In this document: positions 25,266 through 46,251 of the stretch, piece after piece
Layout of the letters: each line of letters opens with the position of its first letter
Position numbering within the stretch: the first letter of the stretch is position 1
From: an uncultured Pseudomonadales bacterium
GTDB lineage: Bacteria; Pseudomonadota; Gammaproteobacteria; Pseudomonadales; Cellvibrionaceae
NCBI GenBank assembly: GCA_947487765.1
Contig: CANKXO010000007.1
Span: 22,180-86,179, forward strand
Length of the DNA: 64,000 nt
Direction: 5' to 3'
Notes under the pieces: generated by a model
Database searches by the model: none
Seen by the model: the letters and a program-made list of their open reading frames with translations, nothing else
What the model was told of the DNA's origin: nothing
Program-made: the position numbers and the translations under genes

Positions 25266-25518
25266 GGCTTTCAAAAATATATCGCTATATTTTGTATAAA
25301 TAATAAAAATAAGCTTGAAATTTATCGTTACAAGCCTAGAATGCACATCAAATTAATTAATGCAGAGACTTTATCTTTGAAGCATTTACTCATATTTACA
25401 AATTACAGCATCGCTTCTGGGGCCGATAGTGCCCAAGAGATACGCTGTGCGTCAATATAACCTGTCTAAGTAAATATAGCTGGCAGGTTTAGCCTTCCAG
25501 TTTTAAAAAGTTATTAAA

Positions 25519-25553
25519 AACCCGGAAGGCATAACTGCTTTTCGGGTTTTTTT
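25519..25553 (+). terminator. Terminator-like hairpin + T7 run (copy 1 of a repeated module)
   Basis: AACCCG (25519-25524) pairs with CGGGTT (25543-25548), followed by a run of 7 T. The string CGGGTTTTTTTATGCCC recurs at 26150-26166. Confidence 0.55.
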
Positions 25554-26128
25554 ATGCCCGAGTTTTAAAAGTAAATGATGAGAGTAATTAGAACTTTGCT
25601 CTTATAAAGTTGTTGGTAGTTGCAATTTTGACAAATGCATAAAAATAGGAGAGTTATTATTGAAAGTTAATCAGAGGCTTAGATCGTTTATTTATAGATG
25701 AATAGTGTCATTCCACGAGTAGGGAAAATTTATTTTACAGATAAGTTTTCCTCGCTAAATTATTGTCGAATTTTTGTGAATATAGCCGCAATGGCATCGC
25801 TCGCCTATTGATTGCTAATACAATATAACTTATTGATATATAGATATTATTTCAAAAAATACTATGCCTTGTTTTAATTTTTATTACGGGCTATTGTTTA
25901 AAAAGATTTACGAAACAACACATCCAAGTGTTAACAAAAAAGAGATTTAACCATGAACCGATTACTCGGAATAAATAACCATCATACAGCTTCAGAGTGG
26001 CCATTAAAGAGTCAGCTGCTGCCGTTTAGTAATTGTTATCGTCAAAATCAAGGCGATATGAGTTTAGAGATGTAATTTGCACTTTCCTTACCGGAAGGCT
26101 GCAAGGCCAACCGGATACGTTTTTTTGA

Positions 26129-26160
26129 AACCCGATTGGCTTTGCTTATCGGGTTTTTTT
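26129..26160 (+). terminator. Terminator-like hairpin + T7 run (copy 2)
   Basis: AACCCGAT (26129-26136) pairs with ATCGGGTT (26148-26155), followed by a run of 7 T. Confidence 0.55.
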
Positions 26161-26193
26161 ATGCCCTTCATGGATGAAGGGTACATCGAAAAT

Positions 26194-26243
26194 GCAGGTC
26201 GGCTTTTGCTCCTGCAAAACCGACATTCACGCCATCCATGGCG
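26194..26243 (+). repeat. Conserved ~50-nt two-hairpin module, copy A (loops GCTCCTGC and ATCCAT)
   Basis: GCAGGTCGGCTTTTGCTCCTGCAAAACCGACATTCACGCCATCCATGGCG aligns with 27383-27429. Shared blocks are GCAGGT, GCTCCTGCAAAACC, CATTC and CCATCCATGG. The stems differ but stay paired. Confidence 0.7.
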
Positions 26244-26498
26244 CTTGAGCAATTTTTTGAGTGCCCAAAGATGGAAGATGAACCCATAACGCTCGAGAAC
26301 CTTTCGAGTATTAAAGGATTAATTTTACATGGCAGTATTTTAGGAAGTTACTCCACAAGGATGTTTTTTAATAGTGCAATGCCCACTTACACGGCATTAG
26401 TTTTTTAACAATTTGGTCGCTTTTTCCGGCATATAAGAAAGGTAAATACATTCTCGGTAATCTCGATGAGTCGTATTTTTTACTTATATGCCAAGTAT

Positions 26499-26653
26499 GC
26501 CCCTATCGTCTAGTTGGATAGGACGCTGGGTTTTCAATTCAGTAACGTCGGTTCGCCGCAAGCGGACCGGTCCAAAGTTATAAACTTTGGCCGTTCAAGA
26601 AACGCAAAGCATGCTTTGCTTAACATGTTTCTTTCACCCATCTAGGGGCACCA
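26499..26653 (+). tRNA. tRNA-Glu(UUC)-like gene interrupted by an ~85-nt structured insert in or after the T arm
   Basis: The 5' part is canonical: GCCCCTA-TC-GTCT-AGTTGGATA-GGAC-G-CTGGG-TTTTCAA-TTCAG-TAAC-GTCGG-TTCG. The 3' end TAGGGGC-A-CCA pairs perfectly with the 5' acceptor strand. The intervening sequence forms hairpins CCGC/GCGG, CCAAAGTT/AACTTTGG, and AAGAAAC..GCAAAGC/GCTTTGC..GTTTCTT. Confidence 0.6.
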
Positions 26654-26663
26654 ATAATTTGTT

Positions 26664-26740
26664 ACGTCGATAGCTTAACTGGCAAAAGCTCTGGCCTCCA
26701 AAACCAGGCGATGTAGGTTCGAACCCTACTCGGCGTGCCA
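26664..26740 (+). tRNA. tRNA-Trp (anticodon CCA)
   Basis: Hand-folded cloverleaf. Acceptor ACGTCGA/TCGGCGT, D stem GCTT/AAGC, anticodon loop CTCCAAA, T arm GTAGG-TTCGAAC-CCTAC, then G-CCA encoded. Confidence 0.85.
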
Positions 26741-26749
26741 AACATAAAT

Positions 26750-26909
26750 GCAGTGATAGCCCCAATAGATCGGCAGATTTTTGTTTCATTGAAGATCAGG
26801 AGAGTGCTGGTTCGACAGCTTTGTAGGAGCAAAAGTTGGACGCTTGTATAGGCGGTCGAGAAGCGATTATGCACAAGGATGTGTATAACAATTCCGGCTC
26901 ACTGCACCA
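26750..26909 (+). tRNA. tRNA-like gene, anticodon undetermined, with a ~72-nt four-hairpin insert in the T loop
   Basis: The acceptor GCAGTGA/TCACTGC is perfect, followed by A-CCA. T stem GCTGG (26806-26810)/CCGGC (26894-26898), with TTCGA then the insert from 26816. The anticodon arm is a 7-bp stem (GATTTTT/GAAGATC) with an 8-nt loop GTTTCATT. Confidence 0.55.
26819..26888 (+). repeat. Four-hairpin insert module, copy 1 (inside the T loop of the 26750 gene)
   Basis: P1 CTTT-GTAGGAGC-AAAG; P2 CGCTT-GTAT-AGGCG; P3 GTCG-AGAAG-CGAT; P4 TATGCACA-AGGA-TGTGTATA. Order and spacing match 29484-29551, with compensatory stem changes. Confidence 0.75.
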
Positions 26910-26916
26910 GTTTTAT

Positions 26917-26993
26917 TTCGGTGTGAAGCAGAGTGGTAATGCGCCTGACTGTTAATCAGGAGTTCGTTGGTTCGACCCTAGCCGCCGGAGCCA
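26917..26993 (+). tRNA. tRNA-Asn (anticodon GUU)
   Basis: Acceptor TTCGGTG/CGCCGGA (with G-U pairs), anticodon arm CCTGA-CTGTTAA-TCAGG, T arm GTTGG-TTCGACC-CTAGC, then G-CCA. Confidence 0.8.
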
Positions 26994-27001
26994 ATTTTAT
27001 T

Positions 27002-27083
27002 GAGGGTGTTGAGCAGGTGGTGAGCTCAGCGGACTGTAAATTCGCCGGAAACTATGTAGGTTCGATTCCTTCCACCCTCACCA
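27002..27083 (+). tRNA. tRNA-Tyr (anticodon GUA)
   Basis: Acceptor GAGGGTG/CACCCTC, D stem GAGC/GCTC, anticodon arm GCGGA-CTGTAAA-TTCGC, a 10-nt variable region, T loop TTCGATT, then A-CCA. Confidence 0.85.
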
Positions 27084-27090
27084 AATTTCC

Positions 27091-27168
27091 GGGCCAATAG
27101 CATAATCGGTAAATGCCCCGGCCTCATAAGCCGGAGAAGGAGCGGTTCGAATCCGCCTTGGCCTACCA
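27091..27168 (+). tRNA. tRNA with CAU anticodon (elongator Met or lysidine-dependent Ile2)
   Basis: Acceptor GGGCCAA/TTGGCCT, D stem GCAT/ATGC, anticodon arm CCGGC-CTCATAA-GCCGG, T loop TTCGAAT, then A-CCA. Confidence 0.8.
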
Positions 27169-27186
27169 ATTAAATGATTAGTTAAT

Positions 27187-27261
27187 AGCGGTGTTGAGCA
27201 ATGGCTGCTTTCGGGTTTCATATGCCCGAGCTTGTTGGTTCGATTCCAACCACCGCAACCA
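27187..27261 (+). tRNA. tRNA with CAU anticodon, initiator-like features
   Basis: Positions 1-72 are unpaired (A.A) above the 6-bp stem GCGGTG/CACCGC. The 3' end CACCGCAACCA resembles the fMet end CCCCGCAACCA. The anticodon stem CGGGT/GCCCG carries three consecutive G-C pairs, and the loop is TTCATAT. Confidence 0.75.
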
Positions 27262-27265
27262 AATT

Positions 27266-27356
27266 GGAAGTGTGGCCGAGTGGTAAGGCAGCGGATTGCT
27301 AATCCGTACAGTGATAAATCGTTGCTGCATGAGTTCGAATCTCATCACTTCCTCCA
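27266..27356 (+). tRNA. tRNA-Ser (anticodon GCU), type II
   Basis: Acceptor GGAAGTG/CACTTCC, anticodon arm GCGGA-TTGCTAA-TCCGT, a long variable arm, T arm ATGAG-TTCGAAT-CTCAT, then T-CCA. Confidence 0.85.
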
Positions 27357-27382
27357 AAATACTCCGGTGATGCAATTGGAAG

Positions 27383-27483
27383 GCAGGTTAAGGCTCCTGC
27401 AAAACCTGCATTCCCACCATCCATGGTGGTCACATAGCCCACTTAAAATCGGTTTGTTGCGAGTTCGACTCTCGCCGTCTGCA
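27383..27483 (+). tRNA. tRNA-like gene (anticodon loop CTTAAAA = UAA, Leu-type) carrying the two-hairpin module in its 5' (D-arm) region
   Basis: The T arm GCGAG-TTCGACT-CTCGC is canonical. The 3' acceptor strand CGTCTGC-A pairs with GCAGGT at 27383. The anticodon arm is GCCCA-CTTAAAA-TCGGT (4 of 5 bp), and there is no encoded CCA (TCA instead). An alternative outer pairing is TGATGCA (27368-27374)/TGCATCA (27480-27486). Confidence 0.4.
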
Positions 27484-27492
27484 TCAGTTTTT

Positions 27493-27565
27493 CGTGAGGT
27501 AATTCAATTAGCAGAATGCGATTTTCATAAAATCGGCGATAGTGGTGCAAGTCCACTCTTCACGA
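27493..27565 (+). tRNA. tRNA with CAU anticodon, non-consensus T loop
   Basis: Acceptor CGTGAGG/CTTCACG, D stem ATTC/GAAT, anticodon arm CGATT-TTCATAA-AATCG. The T arm AGTGG-TGCAAGT-CCACT has G instead of T at position 55. The 3' end is A-CCG, so CCA is incomplete. Confidence 0.7.
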
Positions 27566-27574
27566 CCGGTTAAT

Positions 27575-27648
27575 AGCAGCGTGGTGTAACGGTAACACAC
27601 CGGACTTTGACTTCGGTATTTCAGGTTCGAATCCTGGCGCTGTTGCCA
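27575..27648 (+). tRNA. tRNA-Gln (anticodon UUG)
   Basis: Acceptor AGCAGCG/CGCTGTT, D stem GTGT/ACAC, anticodon arm CCGGA-CTTTGAC-TTCGG, T arm TCAGG-TTCGAAT-CCTGG, then G-CCA. Confidence 0.85.
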
Positions 27649-27688
27649 AATAGTATGTTGAGTAGGGTTCTAAAAATATTTAATTTTT

Positions 27689-27763
27689 GTGCGAGTGGCA
27701 GAATGATGATGCGCGGAACTGCAACTTCCGTTTACGCCGGTTTGATTCCGGCCTCGCACTCCA
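27689..27763 (+). tRNA. tRNA-Cys (anticodon GCA)
   Basis: Acceptor GTGCGAG/CTCGCAC, anticodon arm CGGAA-CTGCAAC-TTCCG. The T arm GCCGG-TTTGATT-CCGGC has T rather than C at position 56. Ends T-CCA. Confidence 0.8.
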
Positions 27764-27769
27764 AATTTT

Positions 27770-27914
27770 CTGGATATAGCACAGCCTAGTAGCGTGTTGG
27801 GTTTAACTAAAATACATCCAAGTATTTTGCCCTTCGGGTTCTTCGAAGTTCAAAACGTTCCAGACGTTTTGTGGAGCTCAAAGTTTGTGGGTTCAAACCC
27901 TGCTATCCAGACCA
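27770..27914 (+). tRNA. tRNA-like gene, anticodon undetermined, with ~70 extra nt between the anticodon region and the T arm
   Basis: The acceptor CTGGATA/TATCCAG is perfect, followed by A-CCA. D stem GCAC/GTGT and T arm GTGGG-TTCAAAC-CCTGC are present. The interior holds hairpins AAAACGT-TCCAG-ACGTTTT and TTTG-TGGAGCT-CAAA, the latter resembling the GYAGGAGC hairpin. Confidence 0.5.
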
Positions 27915-27926
27915 ATTAATTTAAAC

Positions 27927-28000
27927 GCGGTGTTGACCGAATGGTTAGGTACCTGCCTTCCAAGCAGAGGAAATGGGTTCGATTCCCATACACCGCTCCA
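27927..28000 (+). tRNA. tRNA-Gly (anticodon UCC)
   Basis: Acceptor GCGGTGT/ACACCGC, anticodon stem CTGC/GCAG with loop CTTCCAA, T arm ATGGG-TTCGATT-CCCAT, then T-CCA. Confidence 0.85.
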
Positions 28001-28008
28001 AAATTTAA

Positions 28009-28082
28009 TGAAGGTTGGCTTAGTGGCTGAGCACCGGACTTTTAATCCGGCTAGATGGGTTCGATCCCCATACCTTCAACCA
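28009..28082 (+). tRNA. tRNA-Lys (anticodon UUU)
   Basis: Acceptor TGAAGGT/ACCTTCA, D stem GCTT/GAGC, anticodon arm CCGGA-CTTTTAA-TCCGG, T arm ATGGG-TTCGATC-CCCAT, then A-CCA. Confidence 0.88.
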
Positions 28083-28115: not shown

Positions 28116-29312
28116 ATGGCGATTAAAAAAGTATTGGCGCCGCATAAAGATCAGCGGTTGCCTGTAAAAATTTGGACGGATGATATTGATTACAGCACGC
28201 AGGCTCAGTTGAGTCGTGTAGCGAACTTACCATTCGTTTATAAGCATGTAGCAGCGATGCCTGATGTACATCTCGGAAAAGGCGCCACTGTTGGTTCAGT
28301 GATTGCAACCGATAAAGCTATTATCCCTGCAGCTGTGGGTGTGGATATTGGATGTGGAATGAATGCAGTGAGATTATCTATTAAAGCAAAAGATTTGCCT
28401 GATAGCCTAAAATTGATTCGAAACGGAATTGAATCAGTTGTACCTTTAGGTCCCGGAGGTCAACATCGTGACCCCAAAATTGCTGGTGGTCATGATATAT
28501 CAATGCGTCTATGTACTATTTTTGAAAAACACCCGAAGTTAAGTAAGCGCGTTAAAGTGAATGGGTTTGCGAAACAATTAGGAACGCTGGGCTCAGGAAA
28601 TCATTTCATTGAATTATGTTTAGATGAAAATGATGACGTGTGGATTATGTTGCATTCAGGGAGTCGTGGAGTTGGCAATAAAATCGGTATGTACTTTATC
28701 GAAATTGCTAAACGAGAAATGGAAAAATGGATGATTCACTTACCTGATAAAGACTTGGCTTATCTATCTGAAGGGTCAGAATATTATGATGACTATATTG
28801 AAGCAGTTTCTTGGGGGCAAGATTATGCGGCATTGAATCGCACGCATATGATGAATGCAGTAATGCTAGAACTACGTAAGTATTTACCTGCGTTTACAAT
28901 CACACAAGAGGCTATCAATTGCCACCATAATTATGTTGAAAAGGAAAATCATTACGGCAAAAACGTATGGGTAACGCGTAAAGGCGCAATCCGTGCGAGA
29001 AAGGATGATCTTGGTATTATTCCCGGGTCCATGGGTGATAAAAGTTTTATTGTTCGTGGTAAAGGTGAATCTGAATCATTTTGTTCTTGTTCCCATGGTG
29101 CGGGTCGACGATTGAGTCGTACTGCAGCTGCAAAAACTTTTTCCGTTGCTGATCTCGTATCAGCTACTGAAGGAATAGAATGTCGTAAAGACAGGGGTGT
29201 CATTGATGAAATTCCAATGGCATATAAGCCTATCGATAGCGTGATGGATAACCAAACTGATCTAGTGGATATAGTTCATACACTTCGACAAGTCGTCAAT
29301 GTAAAAGGCTAG
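28116..29312 (+). CDS. rtcB: RNA-splicing ligase RtcB (copy 1)
   Basis: The start was moved to the ATG at 28116, which has the RBS AAGGAG 8 nt upstream. The track ORF start at 27885 runs through three tRNA genes. RtcB motifs are present: GVDIGCGMN, GSGNHFIE, HSGSRGVGN, CHHNY, PGSMGDKS, SCSHGAGR. Confidence 0.93.
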   Translation: MAIKKVLAPHKDQRLPVKIWTDDIDYSTQAQLSRVANLPFVYKHVAAMPDVHLGKGATVGSVIATDKAIIPAAVGVDIGCGMNAVRLSIKAKDLPDSLKLIRNGIESVVPLGPGGQHRDPKIAGGHDISMRLCTIFEKHPKLSKRVKVNGFAKQLGTLGSGNHFIELCLDENDDVWIMLHSGSRGVGNKIGMYFIEIAKREMEKWMIHLPDKDLAYLSEGSEYYDDYIEAVSWGQDYAALNRTHMMNAVMLELRKYLPAFTITQEAINCHHNYVEKENHYGKNVWVTRKGAIRARKDDLGIIPGSMGDKSFIVRGKGESESFCSCSHGAGRRLSRTAAAKTFSVADLVSATEGIECRKDRGVIDEIPMAYKPIDSVMDNQTDLVDIVHTLRQVVNVKG

Positions 29313-29358: not shown

Positions 29359-29432
29359 GCCCAATTGGCATAGTGGTCGTGCAGCTGCTTTGTAAGCAGC
29401 AGAGACAGGTTCAATTCCTGTATTGGGCTCCA
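29359..29432 (+). tRNA. tRNA-Thr (anticodon UGU)
   Basis: Acceptor GCCCAAT/ATTGGGC, D stem GCAT/GTGC, anticodon arm GCTGC-TTTGTAA-GCAGC, T arm ACAGG-TTCAATT-CCTGT, then T-CCA. Confidence 0.85.
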
Positions 29433-29441
29433 GTTTACATC

Positions 29442-29593
29442 GCCTGATTAGTTCAATTGGACTTAGAGCATCCGCCTACGACAATTTTGCAGGAGCAAAA
29501 ATTGGGCGTCTATAGAGGCGATCGTGAAACGATAATGTGCAGGACGCATATTACAAACGGGAAGATGCGGGTTCGAATCCTATTCAGGTGCCA
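29442..29593 (+). tRNA. tRNA-Arg(ACG)-like gene with the four-hairpin insert in the anticodon loop
   Basis: The 5' half is canonical: GCCTGAT-TA-GTTC-AATTGGACTTA-GAGC-A-TCCGC-CTACGA. The insert follows from about 29482. The 3' part GCGGG-TTCGAAT-CCTAT-TCAGGTG-CCA has a weak T stem, and no clean 3' anticodon-stem strand was found. Confidence 0.45.
29484..29551 (+). repeat. Four-hairpin insert module, copy 2 (inside the anticodon loop of the 29442 gene)
   Basis: P1 ATTTT-GCAGGAGC-AAAAT; P2 CGTCT-ATAG-AGGCG; P3 ATCG-TGAAA-CGAT; P4 ATGTGC-AGGAC-GCATAT. Collinear with 26819-26888. Confidence 0.75.
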
Positions 29594-29601
29594 AATTTAT
29601 T

Positions 29602-29678
29602 ACTCTCGTAGCTTAATTGGATAGAGCGTCTGTCTTCGAAACAGAACGGTGTTGGTTTGATTCCAACCGAGAGTGCCA
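29602..29678 (+). tRNA. tRNA-Arg (anticodon UCG)
   Basis: Acceptor ACTCTCG/CGAGAGT, D stem GCTT/GAGC, anticodon arm TCTGT-CTTCGAA-ACAGA, T arm GTTGG-TTTGATT-CCAAC (T at position 56), then G-CCA. Confidence 0.82.
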
Positions 29679-29917: not shown

Positions 29918-30211
29918 ATGAGACTTGCTATAACGCGATCAGGTTTTTATAACGCTGATCTTTATTGCGCTGATACTCGTACAGCTAAAAGAGTGTTGCG
30001 TGAAAAAAATATTTCCATATTGGCTATCGACTATTATCTAGTTGGCCAGGGAAATGGTTGCGATATTATTGATTGGGCTAAAAGAAATGCAGTTTTGCCT
30101 AATTTTATCGTTGTTATTGAACGTAATCGCAACAAACGAGCCTTATTATCGAATACATTACGAAATATAGGTTATCGCTCTGGTGATGATACTACCTTTA
30201 TAAGGCATTAA
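29918..30211 (+). CDS. Small receiver-fold-like protein, possibly a degenerate 'cyclic-phosphate processing receiver' (cREC)-type domain
   Basis: The start was moved to the ATG at 29918, which has a strong RBS AAGGAGG. The upstream part of track ORF 29795.. overlaps a structured RNA region. The 97-aa protein contains ...ILAIDYYLVGQGNGCDIIDWAK...PNFIVVIERNRNKRA... This resembles from memory the hhhDhDLG...G.dhh.Wh...hhhHS.N layout of small REC-like proteins that accompany RtcB, but the catalytic-type residues are replaced. Confidence 0.45.
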   Translation: MRLAITRSGFYNADLYCADTRTAKRVLREKNISILAIDYYLVGQGNGCDIIDWAKRNAVLPNFIVVIERNRNKRALLSNTLRNIGYRSGDDTTFIRH

Positions 30212-30250: not shown

Positions 30251-30814
30251 ATGATGAATATTCAAATTTTGCAGCTATCGAAGTCAGGTCACCCAATGTC
30301 TTGGGTGAACCGTGAAGAAGCCGCAACACTGTATGCAAAAAATAGGGTGTTATGGGAGCTGGGTGACGAAGTTATTCCAATTGTCGGCGGTATTAATCGC
30401 TTGGGCATTCAAAGTCGCTTCGATATGGCACCAATTATTGCTTGTGATGGTGATGTGAAACAACCTCGTTTACGACCATCGTTAAGTAATCGTATGCTGT
30501 TTCGCCGAGACGATTACCGATGCTTGTATTGTGGTGTTCAGTTTAATCACGACGGATTAACGCGGGACCATATTGTGCCGCGTATTCAAGGTGGTTTAGA
30601 TCGTTGGGAAAATGTGGTTGCTGCTTGTAAACGCTGTAATCACAGTAAGGGTGGTCGAACGCCAGAGCAGGCAGGGATCAAGCTATTGGCCATTCCATTT
30701 GTGCCGAATCCGTTTGAGTTTCTGTTTTTGGCAAATCGACATATTCTGGCTGACCAGATGGATTATCTTGCGACAAGCTTTTCGTCAAAGCGAGACTGGA
30801 AAAAAGTGGCTTAA
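30251..30814 (+). CDS. HNH endonuclease
   Basis: The HNH core is present: CLYCGVQFNHDGLTRDHIVPRIQGGLDRWENVVAACKRCNHSKGG. 187 aa. Two hairpins follow (30806-30826 and 30837-30862). Confidence 0.85.
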   Translation: MMNIQILQLSKSGHPMSWVNREEAATLYAKNRVLWELGDEVIPIVGGINRLGIQSRFDMAPIIACDGDVKQPRLRPSLSNRMLFRRDDYRCLYCGVQFNHDGLTRDHIVPRIQGGLDRWENVVAACKRCNHSKGGRTPEQAGIKLLAIPFVPNPFEFLFLANRHILADQMDYLATSFSSKRDWKKVA

Positions 30815-30991: not shown

Positions 30992-31064
30992 GTTTTTGTA
31001 GCTCATAGGGTAGAGCAATCGACTCATAATCGATGGGTAGCAGGTTCGATTCCTGCCTCAAACA
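30992..31064 (+). tRNA. tRNA with CAU anticodon (fourth CAU gene), weak acceptor stem, no encoded CCA
   Basis: D stem GCTC/GAGC, anticodon arm ATCGA-CTCATAA-TCGAT (perfect), T arm GCAGG-TTCGATT-CCTGC. The acceptor GTTTTTG/CTCAAAC pairs at only 5 of 7 positions. The 3' end is A-CAG. Confidence 0.65.
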
Positions 31065-31424
31065 CAGTCAGTTTTAATAAACTGAAGGAAAAGCCGAGAG
31101 GCTGAGGTTCGAATCCTCATTTGGTCTACTAAACCAAATATAAAACAAGAGGCTCATAGCAACGTAATGCTGTTATAGATTATGTTGCGTTGACATTAAT
31201 ACCGTTAATGATGGGTTAAGGTATTGCGTAGTAAATAATAAGTTTACCTCACTATCAACAGCTAAGGATGGTGTCCTAGGGATGGGGATAATCAAGAGTG
31301 ATTAGGTTAGTGTGGAGCAACCGCTGTATTTGTCTACCCATTACATTTAAGTTATTTACCGTACTCATGGCAAATGGGCCTCGCCATTATAGTCATTGGA
31401 AGAAATAAATAAGGGAGAATAATA

Positions 31425-32576
31425 ATGATTCTTTGGAAAACAATCGATATTGCGGAACATGAACGTGTATTACTTTATGTCCGTGATCAATTTAAACAAG
31501 TGCTAGGCCCAGGTCGGCATCGTGTCTCGACCTTGAAGGGAAAAGTTCGCCAGGAAACCTATGATATTACCGAAGTAGTATTCAGGCATCCTAAAGAAAA
31601 ATTTTTGCTGTCACACTACCCAGAAAAACTGGCAATGCACCTTGAGCAGTTTGACTTAAAAGATACTGAAGTGGGCTTGTTATATCGAAATGGCCATTTA
31701 ATGAATGTGTTGGCACCTGGTAGTTTATTTACAGTTTGGAAAGGTGTTGAGGATATTCGTGTTGACGTTATCGATATTAATAACCACTATCAGATAGAAG
31801 AGTCTTTAATTGGCTTATTGGGGCGAGGCATTAAAATTGGTCAAAGCCGAGAAGTCGTTAATGCGATTGCTTATGCAGAGGTAGTTGATGAGCATGTAGG
31901 TTTATTGCTGGTTAACGGTAAGCTAGAAAAGATCTTGCAACCGGGTAGTTACGGCTTCTGGAAATATAACCGTTCAATTGCGGTTAAAATGCTTGATCTT
32001 CGTTTACAAGCAATGGAGGTTAGTGGCCAAGAGATTCTGACCAAAGATCGCGTGAGTTTGCGTATTAACTTAACTGGTAGTTATAAAATTAAAGATCCTC
32101 AAATTGTTGCCTCTAAGGTGAATGATTACGCAGGTTTTATCTATCGTGAGTTGCAATTAAGTTTGCGAGAAATTGTAGGCACACAATCATTAGATGGATT
32201 GTTAGAAGATAAAGATGCTTTAAATTCTGTAATTACTCAGAGTACACGAGAAAAATTAGCGGAATACGGTATTCAGTTAATGAGTGTCGGGGTTAAAGAT
32301 ATTATTTTACCTGGTGAAATGAAGCAGATTCTGAATCGAGTAGTAGAGGCGCAAAAAGAGGCTGAAGCTAATTTGATTAAGCGTCGTGAGGAAACTCAGG
32401 CAATGCGTTCATTACATAATGCTGCCAAGATGATGGAAAACAACCCTGTGTTGTTACGTTTAAAGGAATTAGAAGCATTAGAAAGAGTGACTGGGAAAAT
32501 CGATAAGATTTCTGTCTATGGTGGCCTTGATAGTGTTCTTAATGACTTGGTAAAACTGGCGCCGGTCAAAACCTAA
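31425..32576 (+). CDS. SPFH/Band-7 (slipin-like) domain protein
   Basis: 383 aa. The C-terminal half is SPFH-like (...VSLRINLTGSYKIKDPQIVA...GIQLMSVGVKDIILPGEMKQILNRVVEAQKEAEANLIKRREE...). No clear N-terminal TM helix was seen. Confidence 0.8.
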   Translation: MILWKTIDIAEHERVLLYVRDQFKQVLGPGRHRVSTLKGKVRQETYDITEVVFRHPKEKFLLSHYPEKLAMHLEQFDLKDTEVGLLYRNGHLMNVLAPGSLFTVWKGVEDIRVDVIDINNHYQIEESLIGLLGRGIKIGQSREVVNAIAYAEVVDEHVGLLLVNGKLEKILQPGSYGFWKYNRSIAVKMLDLRLQAMEVSGQEILTKDRVSLRINLTGSYKIKDPQIVASKVNDYAGFIYRELQLSLREIVGTQSLDGLLEDKDALNSVITQSTREKLAEYGIQLMSVGVKDIILPGEMKQILNRVVEAQKEAEANLIKRREETQAMRSLHNAAKMMENNPVLLRLKELEALERVTGKIDKISVYGGLDSVLNDLVKLAPVKT

Positions 32577-32609
32577 AGAAAGCTGCTAGGTTATTTAGCA
32601 GCTTTCTTT
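32575..32609. terminator. Bidirectional terminator hairpin between the convergent SPFH and RT genes
   Basis: The 14-bp stem AAAGAAAGCTGCTA (32575-32588)/TAGCAGCTTTCTTT (32596-32609) is perfect, with loop GGTTATT. Confidence 0.7.
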
Positions 32610-32749
32610 GATGAGAAGTTTACCTTTTAAATGACTGTTTCATGCAATGATGAAACAATAGCAATATCGAACATCATTTGTTATTAATGAGTTAATTTTT
32701 TTATAATTGAATGCTAGGGTTGAAGTTCATAAGATGTTTTTATTGAGCG

Positions 32750-36572: not shown

Positions 36573-36643
36573 ATTTTTGCCTGAGAAATTTTTCTGAAAA
36601 TTATGAATCTAATGCGTTTTTGTATAATTTTTATATAGCGTTT

Positions 36644-39820: not shown

Positions 39821-40200
39821 AGCTTCCTTAAACTCTTTTATTTTTTGATAAACTTATTTTTTTGAGTATAGCATTATCCTAATAATGGACAAGACTACAT
39901 GGCTATATTATATCTAGAGTTTACACTCGCTCTATCGTAAAGACTATGCTTCTATATACTTCATTCACGTTTTATTAGATAGCAATTATAACCTTTACCC
40001 CTTTCCCTGACGTGATTGTAAAGTGTTAATTTCATATTTGGGTTTACGGCGGTGCTATAATTTTGGTTGCTGTGTCAGGAAGTGTCGCGTTATTTTCAAT
40101 TCTAAAGGTTATCTTGATGAATGTGTTACCTAGCCCGATGACAAATATGTAATTACTATATTTTAAACAATTTTTAAATGCTTAACTGGTAGTAAAGTAT

Positions 40201-41460
40201 ATGCAATTAAATAATAAAAAAGTTTACTTAGTTGGCGGAGCTGTCCGTGACGAACTATTGAATCGCCCAGTTTCAGATCGAGACTGGGTGGTGATTGGTG
40301 TGACTCCAGAAATGTTGATTAAGCAAGGCTATCGGCAAATCGGTAGTGACTTTCCTTGCTTTTTGCATCCTGAAACCAAAGATGAATATGCACTGGCACG
40401 TACGGAGAAAAAATCAGGAAGCGGCCATACAGGGTTTGTGTGTGATTTTAGTCCTGAGGTAACTCTCGAAGAAGATTTATCTCGGCGCGACCTCACCATC
40501 AATGCCATTGCTAAAACAGTAGAGGGTGAATATGTTGATCCTTATGGAGGCAGAGAAGATTTAGAGAATCGAATATTGCGCCATGTATCAGATGCATTTG
40601 CTGAAGACCCATTGCGTGTGTTACGCGTTGCTCGTTTTGCCGCTCGCTACGCAGAGTTAGGTTTTACGGTACACCCAAGTACATTAGCCTTAATGGCTCA
40701 GTTAGTCAGTTCTGGTGAACTATCAGAATTAACACCAGAGCGAGTCTGGAAAGAAATGTCTCGTGCATTAACAGAGCCTCGTCCTAGTGAGTTCTTTCGT
40801 GTGCTTCGTGCCTGTGGTGCTTTGTCGGTACTATTACCCGAAGTAGATTGCTTATTCGGTGTTCCTCAGCCACCCCAACATCATCCTGAAATTGATACCG
40901 GCGATCATGTAATGATGGTGGTTGATATCGCTAAAGAGCGCTTTGATTCTATTAATATCACTTGGGCTGCCTTAATGCATGATTTAGGAAAAGGGCTGAC
41001 GCCTGAAGAGGAGTGGCCCAAGCATATCCGTCATGAAATTAAAGGTGTGCCATTAGTTGAGGCTGTTTGCGAGCGTTATAAAGTTCCGCGTGATTTTAAA
41101 ACATTAGCAATGTTAGTTTCTGAGCACCATTTGCGTTGCCATAAATTATTAGAGATGAGACCAAAATCCATTATGCGCTTATTAGAAGCGCTGGATGCTT
41201 TTAGGCGGCCAGAGAGGGTTAAATATTTTGCGCAAGCCTGCGAAGCCGACGCCAGAGGTCGCTTAGGTTTAGAAGATAGAGATTACCCACAATCGTCACT
41301 ATTAATAAAATGCGGTGAAGTGGGGAAGGATATAGATATTAAGCCTTTACTGGATGAAGGCTACCAAGGCTTGAAGCTGGCGGAACAGATTCGCCGTTTA
41401 CGACTAGGGGCGATTAAGAGGTTTATGGCAAATTATCGAAAAGAAATATTAGGGAAATAA
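40201..41460 (+). CDS. cca: Multifunctional CCA-adding tRNA nucleotidyltransferase with HD domain
   Basis: Starts VYLVGGAVRDELLNRPVSDRDWVV. The class-II NTase head is followed by an HD region (HHPEIDTGDHVMMV...HDLGK). 419 aa, like gammaproteobacterial Cca. Confidence 0.92.
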   Translation: MQLNNKKVYLVGGAVRDELLNRPVSDRDWVVIGVTPEMLIKQGYRQIGSDFPCFLHPETKDEYALARTEKKSGSGHTGFVCDFSPEVTLEEDLSRRDLTINAIAKTVEGEYVDPYGGREDLENRILRHVSDAFAEDPLRVLRVARFAARYAELGFTVHPSTLALMAQLVSSGELSELTPERVWKEMSRALTEPRPSEFFRVLRACGALSVLLPEVDCLFGVPQPPQHHPEIDTGDHVMMVVDIAKERFDSINITWAALMHDLGKGLTPEEEWPKHIRHEIKGVPLVEAVCERYKVPRDFKTLAMLVSEHHLRCHKLLEMRPKSIMRLLEALDAFRRPERVKYFAQACEADARGRLGLEDRDYPQSSLLIKCGEVGKDIDIKPLLDEGYQGLKLAEQIRRLRLGAIKRFMANYRKEILGK

Positions 41461-41464
41461 TAAG

Positions 41465-42367
41465 ATGAGCAGTAAAACTCAGCATTTAATTAAACAAGGT
41501 TTACTCAAGTCTCCGCCTAAGTTTTTGGAAACCGGGGTACAGTATGAAGTGGTTATGGGCTCTATTGCCTATGGTGTTGCTGAAGATCACTCTGATATGG
41601 ATATTTATGGTTTTGCCATTCCACCACGAGACTGGGTATTTCCTCACTTAAGAGGAGAAATTTCAGGTTTTGATGAATCTGGCCCTCAATTTGAGCAAGT
41701 GCAGCAACATCATATGTTGGATAAGTCTGCACGTGGAGGTAAAGGCAAGGAGTATGATTTGGTCATCTATTCGATTATTAAATACTTTCGCTTACTGATG
41801 GATAATAACCCTAATATTATTGATTCTTTATTTGTGCCGCGCAATTGTGTGCTTTATAGCACTGCTGTTGGTGAGATGGTCCGCGAAAACCGTCATCTAT
41901 TCTTGCATAAAGGTTGTTGGGCAAAGTTCAAAGGTTATGCTTATTCACAAGTACATAAAATGCGAACAAAGGTTCCAGAAGGTGGCCGTCAAGCGATCAT
42001 TGATGAATATGGTTATGATGTAAAATTTGCCTATCATGTTGTTCGGTTACTGAATGAAGTCGAGCAAATATTAATTGAAAAAGACCTTGATTTGGCACGA
42101 AATAAAGAGCAATTAAAATCGATACGCCGTGGCGAATGGACACAGCAAGCCATTGAAGAATATTTTACTAATAAAGAAAAACAACTTGAGCAAACTTATC
42201 TGGACAGTGCCTTGCCTGCGTTACCGGATAAAGCAGCTATTAAAAAGTTATTGTTGGAATGCTTGGAGCATCATTACGGCTCATTATCTGAATGTATTGT
42301 TCAGGAAGATGAGGCTTTGATCGCTATTCGAGAAATTGAAACGATAGTGCAACGCTTGAAAAAGTAA
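41465..42367 (+). CDS. Pol-beta-superfamily nucleotidyltransferase (RNA-repair-associated 'RlaP'-like family, from memory)
   Basis: The NTase signature GSIAYGVAEDHSDMDIYGF (GS...DxD) is present. 300 aa. It starts 4 nt after the cca stop. Confidence 0.65.
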   Translation: MSSKTQHLIKQGLLKSPPKFLETGVQYEVVMGSIAYGVAEDHSDMDIYGFAIPPRDWVFPHLRGEISGFDESGPQFEQVQQHHMLDKSARGGKGKEYDLVIYSIIKYFRLLMDNNPNIIDSLFVPRNCVLYSTAVGEMVRENRHLFLHKGCWAKFKGYAYSQVHKMRTKVPEGGRQAIIDEYGYDVKFAYHVVRLLNEVEQILIEKDLDLARNKEQLKSIRRGEWTQQAIEEYFTNKEKQLEQTYLDSALPALPDKAAIKKLLLECLEHHYGSLSECIVQEDEALIAIREIETIVQRLKK

Positions 42368-42864
42368 GCCTTTATTTTTTAATTGAACCACTTTGTATTT
42401 GTTAACCTATAAAAATACTCATTAATATAGTTGTAGTTAATTTTTGTAAGGAAATGTTATAAAAATTATGAATAAAGATATTGATATATAATTTTAATAT
42501 GACTATAGTGCGCGCAGTTTTTACAAATCACCTTTAATCAATACTCTACAGGAGGCTCAAGTATGTTGTATCTAAATAATCAAATCGCATTGTTGGGTTT
42601 GTCTGTATCTTGTTCTTATAGCTAACATTTTTGTTAACGCTATAGCTATCTTTCAGATAAATCCTCTTAGCTAAACGTCTTAACTGTACGTTATAGGTAG
42701 TTTTGCGTAATTTTTTAAGCTAATTCTTGTTGGTCAAATTCTATCGACCATACATTTGCATTTTTTTATGCGGTTAGCGATTAATCTGTATCGCCTTTTG
42801 TTTCAACTCGAAAATATTTTTTGAGGGGGCAATGTCGTGCCTAAAAACATGAGTAGAAATTTTA

Positions 42865-44091
42865 ATGGACACTTATATTAAAAAAATTAATACGCTGGTT
42901 GATCGGCAGGCGAGAGTTGTTATCTTTGATGATAATTGGCTTGAAGATTCTGCTGTTGAGCAGTTGAAAAGAACAATGGAATTAGACGGCATGTTGAGAG
43001 GTATCGGTATGCTTGACCTGCACCCAGGTAAGGGGCAACCAATTGGTGCAGCGTTTGTAACGTGTAATGCCATCTATCCTCACCTTGTCGGGAGTGATAT
43101 CGGTTGTGGTATGGGATTATGGGATTTAGATATTCCAGTCCGAAAAGTTAAATTGGATAAATGGGAGAAGCAATTAGTTGGCCTTGATGAATTTTGGGAT
43201 GGATATCCAAATGATCGGTTACAGAAAAAAGATATTGATACAACTGATACTTTTTTATTATCTGAAAACGGTAAGTTAGGAACCATCGGTGGTGGTAATC
43301 ATTTTGCAGAGCTACAGAAAATTGACAGTATTATTGATTCTGTTGCGTTTAAGCAGTCAGGTCTCAATCATCAGTCTGTTAAATTACTAGTGCATAGTGG
43401 TTCGAGAGGTCTGGGCCAAAAAATTCTCAGGCGCTATGTTGATGATTTTGGCTCAAGCGCTATTTCGACAAATGAACAACCTGAACTTGGTCAACATTAT
43501 ATTCAGCAACATAACTACGCTATCAGATGGGCTGAAGTGAATCGTGATGTCATTGCAGACCGGTTCTGTGAACAGCTCAAAGCGCAGCGGAGATTGGTAT
43601 TGGATGTTGCTCACAACAGGGTTGACCCATTGGCTGAGGAATACGCTGAAGCGATGGGGTTATTAACAAAGAGGCTGCCAGGAAATGGCAACAAAAAATA
43701 CTGGATACACCGTAAAGGCGCAAGCCCAACTAATGAAGGGTTGGTCATGATACCGGGGTCTCGTGGTAGCTTGAGCTACCTTGTTAAGCCTCGTTTGTCG
43801 AATATTCATAGTCTTTCTCAAGGTGGTTTTTCATTGGCCCATGGTGCAGGACGTAAATGGAAGCGAAGTGATGTTCGAGGACGATTAGAAAGCCGCTATA
43901 AAGTAAAAGATTTGGAAAAAACAGCCTTGGGTAGTCGAGTTATTTGTAAGCAACGCGACTTACTGTATGAGGAAGCACCTCAGGCTTACAAAAATATAAG
44001 TCATGTAATAAGTGATTTGGTTGGCGCTGGTCTTGTCGATATTGTTGCAACATTTAAACCGTTACTGACTTATAAGACACGGAGGGTATAA
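42865..44091 (+). CDS. rtcB: RNA ligase RtcB, PrfH-associated paralog (copy 2)
   Basis: RtcB motifs are present: GSDIGCGMG, GGGNHFAEL, HSGSRGLG, AHNRV, PGSRGSLSY, LAHGAGRKW. prfH begins 2 nt after its stop. Confidence 0.9.
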   Translation: MDTYIKKINTLVDRQARVVIFDDNWLEDSAVEQLKRTMELDGMLRGIGMLDLHPGKGQPIGAAFVTCNAIYPHLVGSDIGCGMGLWDLDIPVRKVKLDKWEKQLVGLDEFWDGYPNDRLQKKDIDTTDTFLLSENGKLGTIGGGNHFAELQKIDSIIDSVAFKQSGLNHQSVKLLVHSGSRGLGQKILRRYVDDFGSSAISTNEQPELGQHYIQQHNYAIRWAEVNRDVIADRFCEQLKAQRRLVLDVAHNRVDPLAEEYAEAMGLLTKRLPGNGNKKYWIHRKGASPTNEGLVMIPGSRGSLSYLVKPRLSNIHSLSQGGFSLAHGAGRKWKRSDVRGRLESRYKVKDLEKTALGSRVICKQRDLLYEEAPQAYKNISHVISDLVGAGLVDIVATFKPLLTYKTRRV

Positions 44092-44093
44092 AT

Positions 44094-44789
44094 ATGAAAA
44101 TAGTGAAAGGAGAAAATGAAAAAAATATTGCATGGTTGCAAGTAACCTCTGGTCAAGGGCCGAAAGAATGCGCTTGGGTTGTCGCACGATTAGAGCCGAT
44201 CATTTTGCAAGAGGCTAAAAAGGCTGATCTGTCTGCTGAGCGCATTGAAGCTTTGGCTTTTGATAAATTGCTACGGAAGCAAAATCTTATCGAGACTGAT
44301 GCTTATTTATCGATATTAATCCGCTTGCAAGGGAGGGGAGTCGACGAGTTTGTTCAATCTTGGCAGGGAACGATTAAATGGCAAGGCGAAAGCCCCTATC
44401 GTCCCAAGCATAAGCGATTTAACTGGTTTGTCGGTGTTGCAACACTTGCTATACCAGAGAAGCAAAACGTTGAGTTAAGTAGTTTATCTAAAGATATTGA
44501 TTTTGAATCAATGCGAACAAAGGGGCCAGGTGGGCAACATGTAAATAAAACGAATAGCGCGATTCGTGCGACGCATCGACCAACAGGTTTGCAAGTACGG
44601 GTTGAAACGGACCGTTCTCAGCATAGGAACAAGCAAATAGCATTGGAGCGTTTGCAAATGTTGCTAGCTCAAAGAGGTAGTAATGAGAAAAAATCAATAG
44701 AGCATGCACGCTGGCTGCAACACTATGATGTGAAAAGGGGCAGTCCTACACGCATATTTTATGGGAAAGGATTTACCGAAAACCATTGA
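44094..44789 (+). CDS. prfH: Peptide chain release factor H
   Basis: The GGQ motif region RTKGPGGQHVNKTNSAIRATHRPTG and the N-terminal LQVTSGQGPKECAWVV are typical of PrfH. It is tightly coupled to rtcB. Confidence 0.88.
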   Translation: MKIVKGENEKNIAWLQVTSGQGPKECAWVVARLEPIILQEAKKADLSAERIEALAFDKLLRKQNLIETDAYLSILIRLQGRGVDEFVQSWQGTIKWQGESPYRPKHKRFNWFVGVATLAIPEKQNVELSSLSKDIDFESMRTKGPGGQHVNKTNSAIRATHRPTGLQVRVETDRSQHRNKQIALERLQMLLAQRGSNEKKSIEHARWLQHYDVKRGSPTRIFYGKGFTENH

Positions 44790-44917
44790 TCTATTAAAAA
44801 ACTGGAGTAATGAAATGAATAATCAACAAACCCCGTTGGGCATTTATCGAAATAAGAAGCGAATTTTTACGCCTTCCAAATGGCAGGTTGCTGTAATGAA
44901 CGAAAGAGAATACGAAG

Positions 44918-45874
44918 ATGAAACAGGAAGAGTTAAGCGAGGTGTTGGATTGCCTAGGGAATGAAAGAACACTTTTTTACTACTTTAAAGATCGCTATTG
45001 CTTAGATTTAATTGGCTGGTATATGGATAAAACAAAAAGTCGGTCATTGTTGATTAGGGATTTAAATAAAAGCGGCTTGAAAAATATTCTTCAGAAACCA
45101 GTCATGAGAGAGATTATTAAAAATTGCGGCCATGGTTTTTTGACAAAAGAAATCATAAAAGCCTTCTGGTTCCATGACTTTTTAACGTTCACTTTAACAT
45201 TGGATCATTGGGGAGAAGGGGATAGAGGTTATGACCAAACCTCCAGAAACCAAAAGAATTTAGTGTTGCAGCTGAATTTTGACAATAAACATACGAGTGA
45301 ATATCAGCGTTTATTAAAGCCTGACGACCACTATGGGCCTTTTGAGTGCTGGTGTCACCCTGTTAGGCAGGATGCTAAAAAGACGATGTCGTGGGTAAGA
45401 ATGGATTTCGACTTTACAACCAATGAAGCGCTAATCGAAGAGGTTCAAAATGATTGGTTGCGACAGGCAAATGGAGGATTAACTCGTGTTAAAAAAAGTT
45501 TATCGAGAAAATCAACGCTTAAGCCAGGTGATATTGTTAGCGGCATTCATTGTGAATATAAAGACTTGGAATATTATGTTGAAGAAGTACTGAAGCCTTA
45601 TCGAAAGCTATGGGCAGAAGCTTCTATGCTGGCAGCCATACAATTTATACGTAATGAGTTAGGTATTAATACGATTTACTATCATAGCTTCAGTACAGGT
45701 AATAAGTTGAAGAAGGTTTATGGTTTGCCACCTAGATCAATGTATACACAATTGCCTAAAAAATTTGGTTTTGAATTGACTGAAGAAGCACCTGAGTTTT
45801 TAGCAAGAGATAAACATGCTAAGCGTTACATTAAGGCCATTGAAAACCCGCGATGGTATCGTATGGCGTTATAA
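44918..45874 (+). CDS. Hypothetical protein, 318 aa, downstream of rtcB-prfH
   Basis: A long ORF on the same strand as rtcB-prfH. No family was recognised. The segment ...WVRMDFDFTTNEALIEEVQNDW... could be a D...ExQ/K nuclease-like motif, but this is speculative. Confidence 0.6.
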   Translation: MKQEELSEVLDCLGNERTLFYYFKDRYCLDLIGWYMDKTKSRSLLIRDLNKSGLKNILQKPVMREIIKNCGHGFLTKEIIKAFWFHDFLTFTLTLDHWGEGDRGYDQTSRNQKNLVLQLNFDNKHTSEYQRLLKPDDHYGPFECWCHPVRQDAKKTMSWVRMDFDFTTNEALIEEVQNDWLRQANGGLTRVKKSLSRKSTLKPGDIVSGIHCEYKDLEYYVEEVLKPYRKLWAEASMLAAIQFIRNELGINTIYYHSFSTGNKLKKVYGLPPRSMYTQLPKKFGFELTEEAPEFLARDKHAKRYIKAIENPRWYRMAL

Positions 45875-45920
45875 GTGCATTAAACAACCTAATTAAGGAG
45901 AAATGCTATGAATACTTACA

Positions 45921-46116
45921 ATGAAAATCAAAAGAGCTTTCGAGGTCACTAGCAAACGACGTAAAGGTTACCCTTCAGAAACACAGGTTATGAAGGGAGA
46001 CCGCGTGGTTCACGGAGACAAAGAGCTCATCGAAAAGCTGGGCAGGAATGACCCTTGCCCTTGTGGCTCCAGGAGGTTATTTTAAAAAGTGCTGTCTTAA
46101 ATCAGGTTGCTTTTGA
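45921..46116 (+). pseudogene. Small SEC-C-motif metal-binding protein, apparently frameshifted in a T-run
   Basis: The ORF 45921-46085 ends ...[14 protein letters not shown]. The +1 frame continues KKCCLKSGCF* (to 46116). Removing one T from TTTT (46080-46083) restores the canonical SEC-C pattern CPCGSxxxFKKCC. Confidence 0.5.
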
Positions 46117-46251
46117 CGGTGCCAATCGTGATTACTACTACCGTTAGCGAATACTCTCCGCCTCCATTTTCGTGGAAGTGGAGAGTGAATAAAAGTTTGA
46201 GATGAGAGTAACAAGGTATACTTTGTCAACATGTTCCTAATTGATAAAATG

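Follow-up and report, generated by a model that had tools for sequence, protein, structure and literature searches.

Analysis of a 64,000-nucleotide chromosomal stretch from an uncultured marine Pseudomonadales bacterium (contig CANKXO010000007.1 of assembly GCA_947487765.1, positions 22,180–86,179; the whole stretch is referred to here as the window) showed that the part from 26.5 to 46.1 kb is a mosaic. [quoted passage not shown] Taken as a whole, the region is probably a chromosomal supercluster dealing with RNA damage and translational stress, accreted from known modules. It holds 14 canonical tRNA genes and five tRNA-like elements, two RtcB ligases, PrfH, Cca, RlaP, an HNH endonuclease, an SPFH/Band-7 protein, a weak cREC-like protein and a reverse-transcriptase (RT) module, and lies between a LysR regulator on the left and a class-V aminotransferase on the right. 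Coordinates without a label are those of the window; L081, L082, L083 and so on are labels of comparison loci.

Gene content of the locus

Module boundaries were established, and so were gene identities, with hidden Markov model (HMM) searches, ARAGORN and Rfam for the latter. A first-pass annotation made from the sequence alone had counted at least 19 tRNA or tRNA-like genes, and this number was recovered as 14 intact genes (ARAGORN, Rfam) plus five non-canonical ones. HMM searches likewise returned the two RtcB ligases, PrfH, Cca with an HD domain, the pol-beta nucleotidyltransferase (RlaP), and the HNH and SPFH proteins that it had named; its two flanking genes were as described, and its theme of RNA-end repair, tRNA supply and ribosome rescue was borne out by curated HMMs. 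The RT module with a structured RNA that it listed proved to be a type XIII retron (RNA fold z = −6.8), which is treated separately below. The features of the repair modules are as follows.

26499–28082, plus strand: tRNA array part 1 (ARAGORN, Rfam)
26499–26653, plus strand: tRNA-like element A, found by reading the gaps between tRNA calls
26750–26909, plus strand: tRNA-like element B
27366–27486, plus strand: tRNA-like element C
27770–27914, plus strand: tRNA-like element D
28116–29312, plus strand: RtcB1 RNA ligase, 398 amino acids (PF01139, E = 7.5e-128)
29359–29678, plus strand: tRNA array part 2, with Thr(UGU), element E and Arg(UCG)
29442–29593, plus strand: tRNA-like element E, with a four-hairpin insert
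29918–30211, plus strand: cREC-like protein, 97 amino acids (cREC_REC match below threshold)
30251–30814, plus strand: HNH endonuclease, 187 amino acids, at the 3' end of the array (HNH_5 and HNH models)
30992–31138, plus strand: tRNA-like RNA and half-tRNA, no CCA encoded
31425–32576, plus strand: SPFH/Band-7 protein, 383 amino acids (PF01145, E = 9e-31)
40201–42367, plus strand: cca and rlaP, 4 bp apart
40201–41460, plus strand: Cca with HD domain (NF008137, 621 bits; cut-off 451)
41465–42367, plus strand: RlaP (PF10127, 69.6 bits; cut-off 23)
42481–42864, plus strand: rtcB2 operon leader, conserved in six independent loci
42865–44789, plus strand: rtcB2–prfH pair, stop and start codons 2 nt apart
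42865–44091, plus strand: RtcB2 (NF007153, 487 bits, cut-off 407; TIGR03073, 423 bits, above cut-off)
44094–44789, plus strand: PrfH (TIGR03072, 207.6 bits; cut-off 166.65)
44918–45874, plus strand: protein X, 318 amino acids, third gene of the rtcB2–prfH operon, predicted GNAT-like fold
45921–46085, plus strand: basic protein, 54 amino acids, with a C-terminal SEC-C motif (PF02810)

tRNA array with RtcB1 and HNH

ARAGORN predicted 14 tRNA genes, all on the plus strand, with 11 of them within 26664–28082 and the others at 29359, 29602 and 30992 (the last ending at 31065). Rfam confirmed all 14 with scores of 42–66 bits. Part 1 of the array reads Glu(UUC, interrupted), Trp, element B, Asn, Tyr, CAU, CAU, Ser(GCU), element C, CAU, Gln, Cys, element D, Gly(UCC) and Lys(UUU). 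From 26.5 to 31.1 kb the genes are dense and co-oriented without tandem periodicity, and their density is that of an L-array. The set of specificities is incomplete, at about 11 amino acids. Searching 5,426 E. coli genomes by blastn gave no match to the array tRNAs and, together with the Rfam scores, this indicates that they are divergent in sequence. CCA is encoded by 12 of the 13 array tRNAs other than 30992–31065.

Elements A–E carry insertions. These are large in the four that have a 7-bp acceptor stem followed by NCCA; the exception, element C, has an acceptor-like stem at its end and no CCA. A 79-nt insertion of three hairpins (26556–26636) interrupts tRNA-Glu(UUC) in its T-loop, with an intact ortholog in L081. 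Elements B and E contain a homologous four-hairpin insert of ~85 nt (at 26814–26900 and 29479–29562, respectively), which shows five compensatory base pairs and is 92–96% conserved in L081; element E as a whole is 96% conserved there with acceptor pairing maintained, and both elements are better conserved than their surroundings. One hairpin, TTG(C/T)AGGAGCAAAA, occurs three times against 0.08 expected. Structured insertions of ~80 nt in tRNA-like genes look new. Known ribozymes or introns were considered for these inserts and rejected, as Rfam gave no family with E of 1 or less and group I introns would need a longer sequence. Nor was 27434–27545 accepted as a Y-RNA (YrlA), since its 24 bits fall short of the gathering score, 69.

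The Shine-Dalgarno sequence of rtcB1 begins ~20 nt past tRNA-Lys and the ATG lies 33 nt past it, and no convincing terminator was found between 26.6 and 30.8 kb; on these grounds a single tRNA–mRNA transcript comprising the array and rtcB1 appears plausible. A sigma-54 promoter search gave 64 matches against 59.5 expected, with nothing convincing upstream of the array or rtcB1. RtcB1 shares 95% identity with its L081 counterpart and 55–58% with RtcR-linked RtcBs, and the gene is ~67% identical at the DNA level to jumbo-phage rtcB genes. For the small receiver-like protein of the first-pass annotation, the true gene is probably 29918–30211. Its 97-amino acid product was similar to cREC_REC below threshold only (20.6 bits; cut-off 27); the match was seen in seven of eight family members, and the protein is possibly a cyclic-phosphate-processing receiver domain (cREC). 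A fold search with it was non-specific. In L190–L195 a 398-amino acid RtcB is directly followed by the 97-amino acid protein as a stand-alone two-gene unit with no tRNAs nearby, which suggests that in the lineage of the window the array took up the pair, or the pair entered the array.

Full-length homologs of the HNH endonuclease close the 3' end of 19–26-gene tRNA arrays in the metagenome loci L134, L143 and L145, and others adjoin RtcB in L108 and L111. The sub-orders Asn-Tyr, Leu triplet and Arg(UCG)...His-HNH are common to the window array and the metagenome HNH arrays. The array is present in the window and L081 and absent from L082, and metagenome contigs without relation to these carry similar arrays in which the HNH family is the same. 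The window and L081 versions differ by deletions or fusions of adjacent tRNAs in addition to the 79-nt T-loop insertion. Its distribution is thus sporadic and its turnover consistent with horizontal transfer.

Band-7 protein, b7a-tRNA and the cca–rlaP pair

The gene at 30992–31065 was called by ARAGORN as tRNA-Met(CAU), lacks an encoded CCA and has a 3–70 mismatch; it is followed by a conserved half-tRNA (T-arm and stem) at 31093–31138. A tRNA-like RNA immediately precedes the SPFH gene in four loci, with the anticodon CAT in the window and in L081, a broken one in L082 and AAT in L083. Because it is kept in this position in four loci while the anticodon varies, 30992–31065 fits the description of the b7a-tRNA, insofar as that is given in the citing source. 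That preprint (bioRxiv 10.1101/312249), citing Burroughs & Aravind 2016, places RtcB beside a Band-7 protein and what is termed its "Band-7-associated tRNA". The window has the same layout, with RtcB near a Band-7/SPFH gene, and SPFH homologs stand within the repair clusters of L081, L082, L083 and L088.

The tight cca–rlaP pair also occurs in L081 and L082. RlaP is 95% identical to the L081 protein, 90% to that of L082 and 82% to that of Microbulbifer; homologs lie in RtcR–RtcB–RtcA operons (e.g. L084) and beside RtcB2–PrfH.

rtcB2–prfH–X operon and its leader

RtcB2 belongs to the release-factor-linked RtcB clade, as judged by TIGR03073 and NF007153 scores above cut-off, and the PrfH translation contains GPGGQ (the GGQ motif). 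No match to rtcB2–prfH was found in E. coli at the DNA level. Protein X had no match in the PDB sequence profile, Pfam, NCBIfam or the plasmid collection; fold comparison alone was informative and pointed to a GNAT-like fold. In the 54-amino acid protein the SEC-C motif appears truncated (CPCGS, then stop). This peptide is 98% identical in L081 and L082 at the amino acid level, with DNA identity of only 76–88%, indicating strong purifying selection.

Upstream of rtcB2, a promoter-like TTGATA-17-TATAGT followed by a GCGC discriminator (42481–42515) precedes AGGAGG and a 20-codon open reading frame (ORF) at 42563–42625, which in the window reads MLYLNNQIALLGLSVSCSYS; a terminator-like hairpin (42777–42794) lies downstream of the ORF. 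TATAGT followed by GCGC, AGGAGG and a small ORF were found ~240–400 nt upstream of rtcB2 in six of six independent rtcB2–prfH–X loci (window 42481–42864, L081 11040–11400, L082 13627–13986, L083 10978–11500, L186 7542–7922 and L188 7575–7932). The ORF has 20 codons in five lineages and 25 in one, with a semi-conserved MLGFA core, and the leader shows some covariation among close relatives. It looks like a translated attenuator, possibly one that senses stalling. No mention of such an attenuator or ORF was found in the RtcB2–PrfH literature searched, and the conserved promoter with its 20-codon ORF upstream of rtcB2–prfH–X looks new. The leader is not universal to PrfH operons, since a different PrfH subtype on a Microbulbifer plasmid has neither X nor leader ORF.

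In Simiduia litorea (L188/L189) the rtcB2 sequence falls into three ORFs, probably as a pseudogene, with prfH and X intact. The set lies ~7 kb from the tmRNA gene in a defense-island context, with ParDE, a DNA methylase and a DUF2357/PDDEXK gene as its neighbors.

Recurrence of the modules in relatives

Relatives of the locus were found through RlaP homologs. L081 is collinear with the window from a glyoxalase gene and LysR through the array, RtcB1, the cREC-like protein, HNH, SPFH, Cca, RlaP, RtcB2, PrfH and X to the SEC-C peptide. Its array has 16 tRNAs, with an extra Glu, three Leu and a His and without Gln and Cys. The left flank (LysR) is common to both; the right flank differs. L082 keeps the tRNA-like RNA, SPFH, Cca–RlaP, RtcB2–PrfH–X and the right-flank aminotransferase, and here Macro, RtcR, a zinc-finger protein, RtcB and RtcA replace the array and RtcB1. 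Extra cassettes were present at its module junctions (HD with a 224-amino acid protein; RlaP2, DUF3087 and GGDEF; CobW and DUF1826).

Physical linkage of the modules was seen again in other genera. L083 (Microbulbifer) carries RtcR–RtcB–RtcA, three tRNAs, HNH, a tRNA, SPFH, RlaP and RtcB2–PrfH–X; L088, from an unrelated 5.8-Mb genome, carries eight tRNAs, SPFH, a tRNA and HNH–RtcB–X; and L186 (Gammaproteobacteria bacterium 45_16_T64) carries HNH, HD, RlaP and RtcB2–PrfH–X. The modules therefore appear to co-occur beyond chance, which had been left by the first-pass annotation as a point to be tested. The native composition of the region (see below) and the relatives that hold the same backbone with swapped cassettes at module junctions indicate that the locus has long resided in its lineage and changes cassette by cassette at a fixed place in the chromosome, rather than being a recently acquired unit.

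Proposed function of the locus

From the identities above we infer biochemical roles, co-regulation and a sensing mechanism for the locus. Ribotoxins, or stress-active endogenous RNases of the metal-independent kind, would cut tRNAs or 16S rRNA and leave 2',3'-cyclic-phosphate and 5'-OH ends. RtcB1 would directly reseal the tRNA breaks, possibly assisted by end processing through the cREC-like protein, and RlaP would put back nibbled or excised nucleotides. Where tRNA genes encode CCA, as in E. coli, Cca serves repair rather than maturation; since most array tRNAs encode CCA, the Cca of the locus would likewise rebuild damaged 3'-CCA ends. The HD domain of Cca, which has phosphodiesterase and phosphatase activities, may heal ends. 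For the Band-7 protein and b7a-tRNA, a role as ligation cofactor or scaffold, analogous to Ro and YrlA, can be envisaged. The divergent tRNAs of the array would form a pool of spares or decoys and probably share a transcript with rtcB1 and the genes for the cREC-like and HNH proteins. On ribosomes stalled by a cut decoding center, PrfH would free the peptides and RtcB2 religate the 16S rRNA, with protein X and the SEC-C peptide as likely accessories to RtcB2–PrfH. The operon's own promoter and translated 20-codon leader suggest induction by ribosome stalling. The type XIII retron is an unrelated defense cassette that landed between two modules.

An integrated countermeasure against ribotoxins had already been proposed in the first-pass annotation. 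The functional idea agrees with published work, in which anti-ribotoxin roles of RtcB, RlaP and RtcB2–PrfH are predicted or shown (PMC9304027, PMC9223846, PMC12776372, PMC6514570), but the retron, which was listed there among the elements of the island and is absent from L081, does not belong to the system. A more elaborate version of the mechanism, one circuit with two sensing arms, is doubtful. The circuit would respond to damage of the translation apparatus. In one arm, divergent array tRNAs and the tRNA-like RNAs with insertions, transcribed along with the rtcB1, cREC-like and HNH genes, would act as decoys or sensors for anticodon nucleases. In the other, rtcB2–prfH–X would be induced by stalling on the leader ORF, an attenuator that would register ribosome damage directly, with X, as a GNAT-fold enzyme, acting on released peptidyl-tRNA or on the ribosome.

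Several observations weigh against a joint role in RNA repair. Some array members are interrupted or degenerate, which could reflect decay rather than function; the window has neither RtcR nor RtcA and no outstanding sigma-54 site; and Cca, which scores as the E. coli-type equivalog, may be a simple housekeeping copy. Modules are found on their own as well (RlaP in L086, X in L087, the RtcB1–97-amino acid protein pair in L190–L195, and most HNH homologs without tRNAs or RtcB), so they are best described as separable units that tend to aggregate and not as an obligate complex. The linkage, finally, was judged on only about six independent loci.

Alternative explanations

The array could instead be a selfish or decaying element, spread by the HNH homing endonuclease without benefit to the host and incidental beside the repair genes. 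The HNH genes at the flanks of L-arrays in several metagenome loci, the fast turnover relative to L081, the five non-canonical members and the incomplete set of specificities would suit such an origin. We consider it unlikely, because the tRNAs alternate with rtcB1 and the cREC-like gene along a single strand, and tRNA-Lys is immediately followed by a Shine-Dalgarno sequence; tRNAs accompany RtcB, HNH and SPFH in three other lineages; and elements B and E combine better conservation than their surroundings with compensatory changes. In Anabaena, moreover, an L-array raises survival under translational stress (PMC8421152).

That a single horizontally acquired island, such as a mobile element or prophage remnant, brought all of the genes together is quite unlikely, and the single acquisition that the first-pass word "island" implies was not upheld. 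Island ORFs of at least 50 amino acids and 29 ORFs scanned in the flanking window (some larger flanking ORFs lay outside the scan) included no integrase or transposase, as that annotation had noted, and no conjugation gene. It had also seen no obvious direct repeat, and the sole one near both ends is a weak, imperfect 22-nt match (25566–25587 and 46190–46211; 18 of 22 positions) that is probably due to chance. The right copy of this repeat sits in a ~100-bp stretch common to neither L081 nor L082. Composition, which that annotation had proposed to compare with the rest of the window, was native: the tetranucleotide distance of island windows did not differ from the rest (p = 0.085), and third-position GC content (GC3) was 0.27–0.39 in the island and 0.32–0.36 in the flanks. 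Apart from the weak repeat, the integrase or transposase, direct repeats and deviating composition of a mobile genomic island were thus not found. Searches of phage and plasmid DNA returned only rtcB at ~67% identity and single tRNAs, with no collinear element, and IMG/VR gave matches at the level of the HNH motif only, so that a prophage or plasmid origin is not supported. Relatives hold the same backbone at the site, with LysR on the left in L081 or the aminotransferase on the right in L082, and their content varies cassette by cassette rather than all-or-nothing.

Acquisition as one island would nevertheless accord with the sporadic occurrence of the modules across genera, with the 82% identity of RlaP to Microbulbifer as opposed to 65–70% for the flanking aminotransferase, with the reported horizontal spread of L-arrays (PMC8421152), with the different right borders of the window and L081, with the Simiduia RtcB2–PrfH–X set beside tmRNA and defense genes, and with the weak 22-nt repeat. 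When genome contigs were scanned with the flanking aminotransferase, the closest relative was 70% identical and AsnC was the sole neighbor in common. No recorded sequence was identical to RtcB1 or to LysR.

The remaining alternatives concern the retron and the ordinary genes of the window. The retron features are as follows.

32577–40200, minus strand: type XIII retron cassette (PADLOC RT_XIII, SWIM_XIII, WGR_XIII)
32750–34531, minus strand: retron RT (RT_XIII, E = 9e-188)
34532–34931, minus strand: structured retron non-coding RNA (ncRNA) candidate
34932–36572, minus strand: retron SWIM protein (SWIM_XIII, E = 1e-232)
36644–39820, minus strand: retron WGR/HEAT protein (WGR_XIII, E = 0)

The three minus-strand proteins match the type XIII PADLOC profiles end to end. 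The 400 nt upstream of the RT gene fold with z = −6.77 relative to shuffled sequence and contain a long perfect hairpin, making them the candidate msr-msd ncRNA. In L081 the whole of 32564–40228 (7.7 kb) is missing and 97 bp separate the SPFH gene and cca; no target duplication was recognized at the insertion in the window. Because the retron is absent from L081, where RlaP is 95% identical, and from every other related locus, it is an independent insertion at the SPFH/cca module junction and a passenger. Compared with type XIII retrons as modeled in PADLOC, it has the same three proteins and a structured ncRNA candidate, with nothing unusual, and stands outside the repair set.

It is very unlikely that the region is an anti-phage defense island with the retron at its core, in which the RNA-repair genes guard the cell from its own abortive-infection RNases. 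The retron is missing from L081, L082, L083, L088 and L186, all of which keep their repair modules linked, and no other PADLOC system was found among the island proteins; in its favor are the complete type XIII retron in the middle of the region, the clustering of defense systems in genomes and the fact that several defense effectors are tRNases. Chance placement of a few accessory genes next to ordinary housekeeping ones, here a tRNA operon and cca, would agree with the E. coli-type equivalog score of Cca and with the rest of the window, which is ordinary chromosome (rpsD–rpoA, uvrA, RND efflux and metabolism genes), but is scarcely credible given linkage that recurs in unrelated genomic contexts, divergent tRNAs that include the rare Arg(UCG) common to other L-arrays, and the lack of an array at the same locus in L082.

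Relation to known systems

tRNA L-arrays are linked to HNH, RtcB and RNA or translation genes and spread by horizontal transfer, and the Anabaena L-array is induced by translational stress and improves survival (PMC8421152). The Anabaena repressor TrcR controls a tRNA array, rtcB, HNH genes, slipin (an SPFH protein) and GNAT acetyltransferases (PMC10272220). The window resembles these systems in its dense, co-oriented, non-periodic and divergent tRNAs, in the linked HNH and RtcB genes and in a neighborhood rich in RNA and translation functions; as with other L-arrays, a close relative (L082) has no array. The functional set is that of the TrcR regulon, contiguous in the window and dispersed in Anabaena. 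In contrast to those arrays, this one belongs to a gammaproteobacterium instead of a cyanobacterium, has fewer genes (14 intact ones) and an incomplete set of about 11 specificities, and encloses rtcB1 and the cREC-like gene. No TrcR homolog was identified in the window, which adds Cca–RlaP and RtcB2–PrfH–X.

RtcR–RtcB–RtcA(–RlaP) operons are known (PMC7790460, PMC12776372), RlaP is encoded in rtc operons and acts on nicked tRNA by adding nucleotides to it (PMC12776372), and the P. aeruginosa SPFH protein PaFlo8 is encoded within the rtc locus (PMC13086221). L082 and L083 carry RtcR–RtcB–RtcA at the position of the array, whereas the window has neither RtcR nor RtcA and its RtcB1 is paired with the 97-amino acid cREC-like protein and embedded in the tRNA array. 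Its likeness to the RtcB/Band-7/b7a-tRNA system, as that system is outlined in the citing preprint, lies in RtcB near a Band-7 gene preceded by a tRNA-like RNA, with RlaP in the cluster.

The RtcB2–PrfH module is known from E. coli ATCC 25922 (PMC9304027, PMC9223846, PMC13166195). It serves in the rescue and repair of ribosomes cut by colicin E3 and protects against this toxin (PMC9304027, PMC9223846), and accessory genes accrete around RtcB–PrfH (PMC6514570). Rescue and religation of ribosomes cut at 16S A1493 is a defining activity of the module. The window shares with this module the adjacent TIGR03073-type RtcB and TIGR03072 PrfH with its GGQ motif, the sporadic distribution and the accessory genes. 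It differs in having protein X, the 54-amino acid SEC-C protein and the leader ORF, none of which was found in the RtcB2–PrfH literature searched. T4 and jumbo phages carry tRNA clusters with RtcB or Rnl ligases, RlaP, CCA-adding enzyme, cREC and HNH (PMC7824862). tRNAs, RtcB, RlaP, CCA-adding enzyme, HNH and possibly cREC are thus shared parts, but the window locus is chromosomal and has no phage structural or replication genes.

The first-pass annotation knew of no description of this combination as one system. Sub-combinations have in fact been published (PMC8421152, PMC6514570, PMC10272220 and, as cited in bioRxiv 10.1101/312249, Burroughs & Aravind 2016); for the whole assembly, and especially for an L-array in the position of the RtcR–RtcB–RtcA of a sister genome, no published description was found. 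The locus embodies no new principle and is an unusually complete natural assembly of known parts, in which most of the bacterial RNA-repair modules described so far stand side by side with a spare-tRNA array. As a compact natural construct, it would allow the cooperation of L-array tRNAs, RtcB, Band-7/b7a-tRNA, RlaP, Cca and RtcB2–PrfH against ribotoxins to be tested. It also bears on the roles of the SPFH and HNH proteins, X and the SEC-C peptide, and on the regulation of rtcB2–prfH, for which the leader ORF is a testable candidate. The relatives, for their part, reveal cassette-like turnover at a fixed site, with RtcR–RtcB–RtcA in the array position and the retron insertion.

Sequence to the left of the array

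The array is preceded by the following feature, which is kept in L081.

25266–26498, plus strand: non-coding leader from the LysR gene to the array, with no ORF of more than 70 amino acids and 76–82% identity to L081

Within it are two terminator-like hairpins, 25536–25559 and 26143–26166, that are near-identical (23 of 24 nt), and a partial 34-nt copy (26208–26241) of tRNA-like element C (27393–27426), with 88% identity. L081 lacks the M20 peptidase gene that lies just left of LysR in the window (23161–24333), and its LysR comes directly after the glyoxalase gene; the left flank, too, therefore undergoes gene turnover.

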